DNA from: Acidobacteriota bacterium | GTDB lineage: Bacteria; Acidobacteriota; Vicinamibacteria; Vicinamibacterales; UBA2999 | Length of the DNA: 64,000 nt | Reading direction: 5' to 3' | Assembly (NCBI GenBank): GCA_046727855.1 | Contig: JBKPDL010000025.1 | Span: forward strand, 15,697-79,696 | Shown: piece after piece, positions 15,575-64,000 of the stretch | Layout: the number at the start of each line of letters is the position of its first letter | Numbering within the stretch: the first letter of the stretch is position 1 | The notes under the pieces: model-generated | What the model was told of the DNA's origin: nothing | What the model saw: the letters and a program-made list of their open reading frames with translations, nothing else | Databases searched by the model: none | Made by a program: the position numbers and the translations under genes

Positions 15575-16009
15575 TCACGCCACAGTCAGGCGCAGAACAA
15601 AGAGCGCGAATGCGGCGCTGCTCATGATGGTCCTCGTCGCATGAAGACGTCCCCACCGGTTCAGAAGTTTTGTCGCTTCGTGGGAATGCGGGTCGAGAGC
15701 CGGGTCGAGCAGCTGGTGGTTGGTTGGCAGAATCACGACCAGCGTGAATGGGACCACGGCGCCGAGAAGAACAGCGCCCAAGGCCAGCCAGAGATCGTCC
15801 CGTGCCCACGCCGCCCACAGTCCGGTGACGCACCCGGCTAGCGCGAGGGGCGCCTGCATCACCGTCGCCCGCCGGTAGCTCGGTGCGAATTCGCGAAGGG
15901 CGACCTCCGTGCCACAAGACAGGCGCGCTGGATGCTCAACGGCCGTAATGTAGATCGCCGCACCCGCAAAGAGGCCCGAACACAACGTTGCAACGATCAA
16001 GCCCCACAT
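15575..16009 (-). CDS. DUF1772 (anthrone oxygenase-like) membrane protein
   Basis: 144 aa, 4 TM; LFAGAAIYITAVEHPARL...LPTNHQLL pattern. Confidence 0.75.
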   Translation of the reverse strand: MWGLIVATLCSGLFAGAAIYITAVEHPARLSCGTEVALREFAPSYRRATVMQAPLALAGCVTGLWAAWARDDLWLALGAVLLGAVVPFTLVVILPTNHQLLDPALDPHSHEATKLLNRWGRLHATRTIMSSAAFALFVLRLTVA

Positions 16010-26886: not shown

Positions 26887-27210
26887 ATAGCACACGTCGT
26901 GAACCCGCAGTTCCGGTTCGGTGATGGGAATCTTCAATGAGGTGCTCACCGGCCTGCCAGCCGCGGTCGACGCCTGGCAGTTCGGAGGCATTGGCCGATC
27001 GCAAGCGGCACATTCGATCACTTCATCATCGGCGGAAGTCCCATCGTTGGTTATCACACGGGCGGCAAACAGTAAGGCGACGTGTCAGATTCCGGTTGCA
27101 TAACGACGGCCGGGCTGACCGGAAGACGCACGAGCCGAGCCCAAGGATGCGGGCTGAGCCCAGGCGTCGACACCGAATCCTTCATCGTGTTCCAGACGTC
27201 TTTCACCATA

Positions 27211-27365
27211 GAACTAGCCAAGGGCCCTGCCCTTGATATCCGGCTAACTCCGCGGCCCTTGGCTAGTTCTTGTTGTTGGCTTGGCGCACATCCGCGCGCC
27301 GTAGACCGTTATGCGAGTCCACAACGCGTACAAAATTCACGTCTGTGGCCGCATAACGGTCTAAA
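27211..27365 (+). repeat. Copy A of a ~155-nt three-hairpin repeat family
   Basis: 15-bp stem AACTAGCCAAGGGCC/GGCCCTTGGCTAGTT, a GC hairpin GGCGC...GCGCC and a long stem TAGACCGTTATGCG.../...CGCATAACGGTCTA. Nearly identical to 45835-45986 (reverse). Confidence 0.8.
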
Positions 27366-41369: not shown

Positions 41370-41600
41370 ACGTACGTTCCTCACGTGGGTTCCTTACGCA
41401 GGTTCCTTACGTAGGTTCACGAGGGTTCCGAACGTGGGTTCTTCGCGGAGTTCACGTGGCGTTCGAACTTCCGGAAGGAACTTCCGCAAGGACTCCCGTA
41501 ACGAATCCCGTGAACGTCCGTAAGGAACGTCCGTCAGGAACCCCGTGAACCTACGTAAGGAACCCATTTGAGGAACCTACGTTAGGAACACCCCGTGGGT
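41370..41600. repeat. Palindromic array of about 19 thirteen-nt GGAAC-core units (about 9 in one orientation, 10 in the other)
   Basis: GTTCC/GTTCA units start at 41376, 41389, 41402, 41415, 41425, 41438, 41450, 41461. The centre is GTTCGAAC + TTCCGGAA (41461-41476). GGAAC/TGAAC units start at 41477, 41490, 41502, 41511, 41524, 41537, 41546, 41559, 41572, 41585. Perfect 21-bp IR at 41401-41421 / 41544-41564. Confidence 0.9.
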
Positions 41601-45834: not shown

Positions 45835-45986
45835 TTTAGACCGTTATGCGGCCACAGACGTGAATTTTGCACGCGTTGTGGACCCGCATAACGGTCTACG
45901 GCGCGCGGAGCGCGCCAAGCCAACAACAAGAACTAGCCAAGGGCCGCGGAGTTAGCCGGATATCAAGGGCAGGGCCCTTGGCTAGT
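45835..45986 (-). repeat. Copy B of the ~155-nt three-hairpin repeat (reverse orientation)
   Basis: Its reverse complement matches 27211-27365 apart from a handful of substitutions. Confidence 0.8.
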
Positions 45987-46171
45987 GAGTATCTCCCGAT
46001 ATCGATCTTCTTTTCTGCGATCAGCGAGTCGCAAGCGTGAAACTCAGCGGCTCGCTCCGTTCGGCAGATCCCTTCGACGAGCGGCCAGACGTGTCTGCCA
46101 CGCGATTGGCCGAATGCGCGGCGTCTTTGTCCTTGAGACAACTGCATCGCGGTGTGCATGCTGACGGAGTA

Positions 46172-46326
46172 GACCAACCAAGGGCTCGCCCTTGATATCC
46201 CGATGCCTGGGGAGCATCGCCCTTGGCTGGTTGGCAGTATTTGCTTGGCGCGCTCCGCGCGCCTAGGACCGCTATGCGGACCAGCAACGAGTACAAAATT
46301 CACGTTCGGGGCCGCATAGCGGTCCA
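46172..46326 (+). repeat. Copy C of the three-hairpin repeat (diverged, with compensatory stem changes)
   Basis: GACCGCTATGCGG...CCGCATAGCGGTC versus GACCGTTATGCG...CGCATAACGGTC in copy A. The loop CAAAATTCACG is conserved. Confidence 0.7.
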
Positions 46327-46425
46327 GCGCGACGTCAACACGGACACATCACGAAGTGAGCGGCGCCTCCACAAAGTGCGCACATTCACACCACGTGAGT
46401 CTCTGCTAGTGGTTGGGGAGCTGCC

Positions 46426-63882: not shown

Positions 63883-64000
63883 GAACTAGCCAAGGGGTCC
63901 GGCGTGCCGCCCGCCGGATGTGGCGCACCTGCTCGCGCGCTGCCCTTGATATCCTGCTAACTCCGCGGCCCTTGGCTAGTTCTTGTTGTTGGCTTGGCGC
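63883..64000 (+). repeat. Copy D of the three-hairpin repeat, cut by the window end, with a ~43-nt insertion in hairpin 1
   Basis: GAACTAGCCAAGGGG[insert]CTGCCCTTGATATCCTGCTAACTCCGCGGCCCTTGGCTAGTTCTTGTTGTTGGCTTGGCGC. The insert resembles the element's own GC hairpin. Confidence 0.75.

Follow-up and report, generated by a model that had tools for sequence, protein, structure and literature searches.

The closest described relatives of the repeat reported here are the REP/BIME sequences with their RAYT (TnpA-REP) enzymes and the insertion sequences of the IS200/IS605 family. Both TnpA-REP and the IS200/IS605 enzymes recognize a single-stranded hairpin, with a tetranucleotide at the foot of the hairpin acting as a guide (PMC8266576; background in PMC3333891). 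TnpA-REP cleaves CT or CA on either side of hairpins tagged with GTAG, and a change of GTAG to GTGG shifts the cleavage to CC (PMC8266576). The cleavage and target sites of IS608 are set by guide tetranucleotides (PMC8266576, citing its refs 19 and 26). REP ends of the GTAG type often provide TAG stop codons, and Y1 genes lying between long inverted repeats have been described in Acidobacteria (PMC3733652).

The window analyzed here is a 64,000 nt stretch, i.e. positions 15697–79696 of contig C25 of a Vicinamibacterales metagenome-assembled genome (termed G000; 5.22 Mb, 207 contigs, 62.9% G+C). It contains four copies of a three-hairpin repeat, termed A to D (Table 1). Vicinamibacterales is a major but uncultured soil lineage, and to our knowledge hairpin-guided mobility has so far been known chiefly from the REPs of Proteobacteria and from IS200/IS605. 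The repeat is an undescribed family within the familiar class of mobile hairpin repeats. That it is mobile, target-specific and dependent on its hairpins can be said with high confidence. It is probably, though by no means certainly, a non-autonomous DNA element of Vicinamibacterales that is moved as folded single-stranded DNA by an enzyme acting in trans, and the chance that this enzyme is of the Y1 type is put at slightly better than even. On this reading, target-specific DNA mobility guided by hairpins is extended to Vicinamibacterales.

Table 1. Coordinates of the repeat and of related features. Positions without a contig name are those of the window; ^ marks a junction of element and host DNA; G001 is a sister species.
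Feature	Position	Strand	Sequence or evidence
Copy A, main subfamily	27211–27364	+	sequence read directly
Copy B, main subfamily	45836–45986	-	nhmmer 177 bits; sequence read directly
Copy C, second subfamily (AACC^A ... GGTCC^A, internal TGGTT, foot TAGG)	46171–46327	+	about 75% identity to copy A
Copy D	63884–64000 (cut by window end; continues to position 64076 on the contig)	+	insertion of about 40 nt in hairpin 1 loop
Host target of copy A (GAACT; next A ambiguous)	27211–27215	+	pairs with internal AGTTC at 27265–27269
Inserted DNA of copy A, about 146–147 nt	27216–27362	+	occupied and empty sites compared; sequence read
Hairpin 1 (module P)	27212–27268	+	arms AACTAGCCAAGGGCC and GGCCCTTGGCTAGTT; fold; covariation in helices 1 and 2
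Hairpin 2 (GC hairpin, consensus GGCGCGC-TCC-GCGCGCC)	27283–27300	+	99% of cells paired
Hairpin 3 with 5′ foot GTAG	27301–27363	+	arms TAGACCGTTATGCG and CGCATAACGGTCTA; fold; six pairs with double changes
Insertion site	C182		occupied GAGCTA^GCC..GGTCTAA; empty in G001 GAGTTAA
Insertion site	C34		occupied TAACTA^..CTAA; empty in G001 TAACTAA
Insertion site	C81		occupied TAACTC^..CTAA; empty in G001 TGACTAG
Insertion site	C203		occupied AAACTA^..CTAA; empty in G001 AAACTAA
Insertion site (fifth)	C119		occupied TAACTA^..GGGCTA^AGCAGC; G001 TAACGAAGCAGC
RAYT-like gene	C92:10170–10900		flanked by AAGGGGTCWGACCCCTT palindromes, 67 copies genome-wide (separate REP family)
RAYT-like gene	C204:2525–3245		flanked by private inverted pair GGGGCAGGCCCC; gene and pair conserved in G001

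The preliminary description of this DNA had listed four copies, all intergenic, with a fold of three hairpins. All four are present close to the positions then given, and gene calls from codon usage place each of them between genes. The family extends far beyond the window. Collection of copies with nhmmer gives 151 matches in the assembly, 99 of them above 100 bits, and 18 of these 99 touch contig ends, which indicates that the repeat breaks the assembly. The element thus accounts for about 100 intergenic repeats in this genome and for many of its contig breaks. Copies of the main subfamily (n = 61) differ on average by 2.7% from their consensus. G000 also holds a second subfamily (the copy C type), a third with a GGGCTA end, and truncated and single-module copies. 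A plasmid database searched with the element gave no match.

Among 41 relatives, 14 carry the element, and two other genera of the family display more than 100 candidates each at 72%–79% identity. With a covariance model of the element built in this analysis, termed R1, 24 carriers were detected among 201 genomes of the order (22 of 96 genera, about ten families), with one to many copies per genome. This patchy, burst-like distribution is as expected of mobile DNA. A scan of the genome collection for the GC-hairpin pattern gave mostly chance matches in GC-rich genomes; all of the true copies that it found are in Vicinamibacterales or in other Acidobacteria metagenome-assembled genomes, two of these being mislabelled TPA bins. 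R1 offers annotators of soil Acidobacteria a model for masking the element. The spurious open reading frames that cross the repeat, which had been pointed out earlier, are accounted for by the element as well, e.g. the LAKGP... peptides.

Copy A folds into the three hairpins with a free energy of -77.4 kcal/mol (z = -8.3 against shuffled sequences). The reverse complement gives -84.5 kcal/mol (z = -9.2), thus both strands fold equally well, and copy C has the same fold as copy A. The loop of hairpin 1 contains a conserved GCCCTTGATATCC and that of hairpin 3 a conserved ACAACGNGTACAAAATTC; hairpin 2 is nearly invariant in all subfamilies over an alignment of 60 sequences. The 3′ end of the element reads ..GGTCT^A. 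The ends GCCAAGG.. and ..ACGGTCT do not form terminal inverted repeats.

Hairpin 1 behaves as a module. Solo copies of it exist, typically at GAACTA..TAGTTC centres of palindromic arrays, and it is exactly missing from two copies, C4:5355 and C31:26869 (AACTA^GTTC). Both situations would be explained by the CT found on each side of hairpin 1, which may provide alternative break points such that the hairpin is gained or lost alone. Hairpin 1 was also considered as a mini-MITE that duplicates TA, a candidate that is ruled out by the second subfamily, where it stands between CA and TG. The hairpin 1 loop is a hot spot for small insertions: it is here that copy D has its GC-rich insertion of about 40 nt (63897–63941) and that several other copies, 163 nt long, show a 10-nt duplication, GGCCCTGCCN. 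Two copies contain, nested at their internal CTAG, an unrelated repeat of about 176 nt (GAGCCTTGACGG...GGCCTCGTTAG; C182:10337–10501 and C4:34207–34378). This nested repeat has at least five more copies, in C149, C62, C70, C153 and C130, and seems to land at TAG or CTAG.

The boundaries of the element can be read from sites that lack it. The joined flanks of 22 copies from G000 were compared with four genomes of the same genus, and the sister species G001 displays five clean empty sites (Table 1). Together with the sites described below there are eight, seven in sister species and one within-genome paralogue, all with a precise insertion of about 146 nt. In the main subfamily the occupied form is NNNCT^AGCC..GGTCT^AA; four of the five empty sites read NNNCTAA and the fifth TAACGAA. 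The insertion is beside a host C-T-A and the element itself ends in C-T-A. Since CTA is thereby repeated at both junctions, the boundary of copy A slides by 1–2 nt. None of the tested G001 sites contains the same element, thus the G000 insertions postdate the separation of the two species. The empty sites also bear on the 15-bp first stem of the preliminary description: the pairing is confirmed, but the outer 4–6 nt (GAACTA), which had been counted as part of the repeat, are host target DNA.

Other subfamilies have other junctions. In G023, which belongs to another genus, a site is occupied as ..tatcCT^AACCAGTC..ACGGGCT^AAtactg and its empty paralogue is ..catcCT^AAtactg. In this subfamily (tcCT^AACCAG..GGGCT^AA versus tcCT^AA) ACCA is part of the element and the junction, again after CT, is displaced outward by four bases relative to the main subfamily; the left and right sequences differ at homologous positions. 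This paralogous site refutes another scheme that was tried, in which the junction follows CTA or CCA at homologous positions in every subfamily. A second-subfamily copy in G096, again from another genus than G000, reads ..GAACGAAACC^AGTCAAGG..GGTCC^AAGG.., and the orthologous empty sites in its sister species G072 and G192 read ..GACAAACC^GTTG.. and ..GACAAACC^GGAG... The comparison is thus of AAACC^AGTC..GGTCC^AA with AAACC^G, where AAACC is host DNA and TA is entirely absent. No usable orthologues were found for copy C and two further G000 copies of this subfamily; a contig bearing an identical neighbouring protein comes from the same strain, has the same insertion and is uninformative with respect to empty sites.

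All eight empty sites are compatible with a junction after CT or CC, and from the sequence of these sites we infer where cleavage occurs. The 3′ end of the element bears the same dinucleotide as the host junction, i.e. CT or CC. At the level of sequence, the comparison of occupied with empty sites demonstrates a precise insertion of about 146 nt that has no terminal inverted repeats and is directly 3′ of a host C-T, or C-C in the sister subfamily; in the main subfamily the junction repeat (CT, CTA or TA) is formally indistinguishable from a target duplication of 2–3 nt.

The junctions follow a rule of pairing that holds for all subfamilies. The host bases directly 5′ of the element can pair with the 5–6 nt located after the 3′ arm of hairpin 1, namely GAACTA with TAGTTC, AACC(A) with (T)GGTT, and (t)CTA with TAG(a). 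A second complementarity links the terminal bases of the element with the tetranucleotide that precedes hairpin 3, i.e. GTAG with ..CT, TAGG with ..CC and CTAG with ..CT. Junction and hairpin-foot positions covary between subfamilies. At the left junction, the host base and the internal base are G-C in 48 of 60 aligned copies, A-T in 6 and other combinations in 6 (54 of 60 Watson-Crick); the hairpin 3 foot and the terminal base are G-C in 35, A-T in 10 and discordant in 4 of the rows having both bases (45 of 49 Watson-Crick). Two G000 copies show matched double changes of flank and guide, C182 (GAGCTA/TAGCTC) and C92:28762 (GAATTA/TAATTC), and the host G of C182 is ancestral as it is also present in the empty site of the sister species. 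Two of 13 changed flank-guide pairs are compensated, as compared with 1 of 82 changed pairs in other parts of the stems (p = 0.048).

In these respects the repeat resembles REP, BIME and REPIN sequences, which the preliminary description had named as one possibility. They are the closest known kind. Both are high-copy intergenic hairpins found in mosaics of differing modules. Both have an xTAG tetranucleotide at the foot, here GTAG in the main subfamily (elsewhere TAGG or CTAG) before hairpin 3 and CTAG (or CCAG) before hairpin 1, and CT (or CC) junctions on either side of a hairpin that covary with bases of the foot. In addition, the ends give TAG or TAA stop codons, the subfamilies differ by complementary stem changes, and RAYT-like genes are present in the genome. 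The differences are also clear. The element consists of three unrelated hairpins in a fixed order, whereas REPs are of one type in alternating orientation. A unit of about 146 nt moves as a whole and it flanks no RAYT-like gene. The target preference extends over 6–7 nt (GAACTAA) and is complementary to an internal segment, and the host belongs to the Acidobacteriota, where only Y1 genes flanked by terminal inverted repeats had been described.

With the IS200/IS605 family and its gene-less derivatives (PATEs) the repeat shares the absence of terminal inverted repeats and of a true target duplication (with the main subfamily's 2–3 nt reservation given above), and it has subterminal hairpins at both ends. 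Like IS200/IS605, it inserts 3′ of a short target that resembles its own putative 3′ cleavage site and is complementary to a candidate internal guide. However, IS608 and REPINs have the same hairpin at both ends, and hairpins 1 and 3 of the element are unrelated in sequence. The guide of IS608 is 5′ of the hairpin, whereas the left guide of the element is 3′ of it and extends the stem by Watson-Crick pairs. A relative encoding TnpA with the same ends, as would be expected for IS200/IS605, was not found in G000, at truncated copies elsewhere or in the IS200 of G015. A bias for the lagging-strand template is typical of IS200/IS605. None is seen for the element, with 42 versus 55 copies by local GC skew and 55 versus 43 by regional gene strand, in a fragmented assembly with a GC skew of only about 0.011.

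By analogy with these systems, the element may move as folded single-stranded DNA by “peel and paste”. A trans-acting HUH enzyme of the Y1 group, either RAYT (TnpA-REP) or of IS200/IS605 type, would bind the hairpins and would select its sites of cleavage and of integration through base pairs with the foot sequences; hairpin 2, which is invariant, and the conserved motifs of the loops would serve as contacts for the protein. The anatomy agrees with the rules established for TnpA-REP and IS200/IS605, and the repeat is therefore described as working like these elements. It is not filed as a proven member of either, because it flanks no RAYT gene, a TnpA-bearing relative was not found and the cleavage is deduced. 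The subfamilies constitute a natural experiment: the CT, CC and CT-shifted types differ in the cleavage dinucleotide and in the bases that pair with it, which is the same rule as that of TnpA-REP in vitro.

A search for a RAYT or IS200-like transposase in the genome, which had been proposed as a check, was successful in part. G000 has two matches to the Pfam Y1_Tnp family, both RAYT-like genes at 50–55 bits (loci in Table 1; the proteins are encoded at C204:2613–3197 and about C92:10240–10871), but neither is flanked by the element. Eight RAYT-like loci from six genomes (two in G000 and six in G001, G008, G015, G018 and G024) are without element motifs. G023 has more than 100 copies of the element yet shows no Y1 match in an assembly that is 85% complete, and the presence of Y1 genes does not track that of the element (11 of 13 genomes with it, 18 of 27 without; p = 0.29). 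No autonomous copy, i.e. a left end and a right end spaced by an open reading frame, was detected in G000, and the DNA downstream of truncated copies in other genomes is unrelated and reveals no autonomous relative. A canonical IS200 in G015 has ends unrelated to the element.

Other enzymes must be weighed against this background. Site-specific recombination through the shared CT/CC core, e.g. by an IS110-type recombinase with a transcript of the element as a bridge-like guide, would account for the core dinucleotide at both junctions and for invariant structured parts alternating with variable, guide-like parts. Two internal segments are each the reverse complement of the core and its left flank, and genes of the IS110 family are present in all 13 element-positive relatives tested as compared with 15 of 27 negatives (p = 0.0035). 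Such genes are common anyway, however (28 of 41 genomes), and the two IS110 loci in G000 have no sequence in common with the element. The supposed guides are not internal loops but the usual arms of stems, and guides for a right flank are not evident. This reading is therefore considered very improbable, as is its specific form in which the guide pairs with the left flank of the target (TAGTTC) and that of the donor (TAGACC). There is a small chance that the element is self-addressing in a more general sense: an internal segment of 5–6 nt, with another for the element's own end, would determine by base pairing where a trans-acting enzyme cuts and integrates, perhaps not a Y1 transposase but an IS110-type recombinase guided by the element's transcript in a bridge-like manner. 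If so, this would be a gene-less, self-guiding element with a target that can be rewritten by a few base changes. A classical MITE mobilized by a DDE transposase of IS630/Tc1-like or IS5-like type that duplicates TA or CTA at CTAA or CTAG targets would look similar in several ways. The size, intergenic location, nesting in other repeats and burst-like copy number are those of TA-target MITEs such as Correia/NEMIS, RUP and IS630-derived elements. The main and G023 subfamilies have TA (CTA) at either junction and a single one in their empty sites, hairpin 1 alone resembles a 46-nt palindrome flanked by TA, and CTAG is also the landing site of a second MITE-like family of this genome. It had been suggested that copies bounded by target-site duplications would make the repeat an ordinary MITE, and CT or CC(A) is indeed repeated at the junctions; but in one subfamily the two sides differ, and the two ends have no common terminal inverted repeat. 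The CC(A) junctions of the second subfamily are without TA, its host flank AAACC being backed by two empty sites, and the CA and TG that flank its hairpin 1 are stem pairs, not a duplication. Covariation between junction and internal bases is not predicted where a protein specifies a TA target. A DDE-type MITE with TA duplication is rejected on account of the CC subfamily and because terminal inverted repeats are missing, and it is given very little probability.

The other main question is whether the hairpins are selected as RNA, i.e. whether the copies are structured small RNAs or elements of untranslated regions, such as stabilisers or attenuators. In favor of this are the strong fold (z about -8), the conserved unpaired motifs, an excess of copies on the sense strand (24 of 34) between co-directional genes, and covariation in the stems. 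The double changes reported earlier for copy C are correct and recur over the 60-sequence alignment, which was drawn from many genomes. With the structure specified by the analyst, 91.4% of the cells of this alignment pair; 13 pairs show double changes, in 84 cells, the observed covariation score is reached in none of 500 shuffles, and pairing drops to 33%–40% when partners are slid. The alternative fold that had been proposed, CAAGGGC/GCCCTTG, pairs in 93% of cells with zero covariation, which argues neither for nor against it. Within G000, however, the stems are unprotected: substitutions are at 1.75% of paired and 2.16% of unpaired sites (p = 0.19), and there are 22 G-T and 20 A-C mismatches, without strand asymmetry, and a single compensated change. 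Neither strand is favored after insertion. Selection on structure, as earlier proposed, is therefore seen between subfamilies, on copies still able to move, but not on resident copies, which decay neutrally. Covariation across lineages together with neutral decay within G000 indicates that the hairpins matter for making new copies and not for keeping the residents. Other evidence also opposes the small RNA or leader family of the preliminary description. The fold of the reverse strand is the better one, copies occupy spacers of all three types (divergent, convergent and tandem) in both orientations, and the insertions postdate the species split. Promoter and terminator scans gave no signals. 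A search of the whole window against Rfam gave no match at gathering score, and one with the element at E ≤ 10 gave only two chance snoRNA matches. The sense-strand excess is attributable to the TAA or TAG stop codon in the target. Resident function as RNA is thus very improbable, and the hairpins are kept since the element needs them to move, not for a useful RNA made by each copy. The preliminary description had also argued against the decay of a mobile element, but precise presence and absence, a strict target, patchy distribution and about 100 slightly diverged copies mark the element as mobile. Covariation among subfamilies of a repeat is, as a caution, no evidence for an RNA gene.

The relationship of the element to genes was analyzed with a codon-usage caller of our own (4475 genes, 88% coding). 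Of 67 full copies away from contig ends, none is within a gene; 20 are in convergent, 13 in divergent and 34 in co-directional spacers, and the 10 co-directional copies not on the sense strand are antisense. The genome has 100 unoccupied perfect GAACTAA targets, and 29 of them are inside genes. Given these free targets, the absence of genic copies (p about 1e-10) indicates selection against insertion into genes. About 20 copies overlap a stop codon by 2–7 nt. On the reading of the repeat as mobile DNA, copies would be tolerated only between genes, where they often donate or abut a stop codon, with no demonstrated function for the resident copy.

The preferred target is GAACT^AA, with a variable position 1 and AAC at positions 2–4 in 94%–97% of 70 copies. 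Runs of GAAC-type units are found to the right of 18 of these 70 copies, without exception in one orientation, whereas only 3% of random spacers have such a run. The location of about one quarter of the copies in such runs is due to the strong target preference, as the arrays contain GAACTAA. Units of this type are at 27180–27215 and 41370–41600 of the window and at many other G000 loci, e.g. C78:26220–26252 and C39:32248–32280, and GAACGAAGAAC is present 105 times in the genome. Several repeat families seem to have insertion hot spots in these arrays. The sister species lacks both array and element at the site corresponding to C110:36505. A locus of G001 (C138:16900–17500), orthologous to C142:47922 of G000, contains a different insert of about 165 nt that starts GAACTAG^CCCCTTAATTCAC; thus one GAAC-array target has been colonised independently by two families.

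In G000, an IS110-family element at C173:9480–11305 is beside a palindromic GGTTCC/GGAACC array and has about 340 nt of non-coding sequence upstream of its gene; this contig ends in a 139-nt overlap with C159. One copy of the repeat in G096 (C325:34857–35508) is directly after the 3′ CCA of a tRNA gene (..CTCCCTCCGCCA^GAACCAGCC..). In G023, copies at three loci (L016, L019 and L020) are flanked by other short tandem arrays, CACGAATCAAGAAT.. and GCAGTAGGCAGTAA.., thus the link between element and arrays is not limited to GAAC units.
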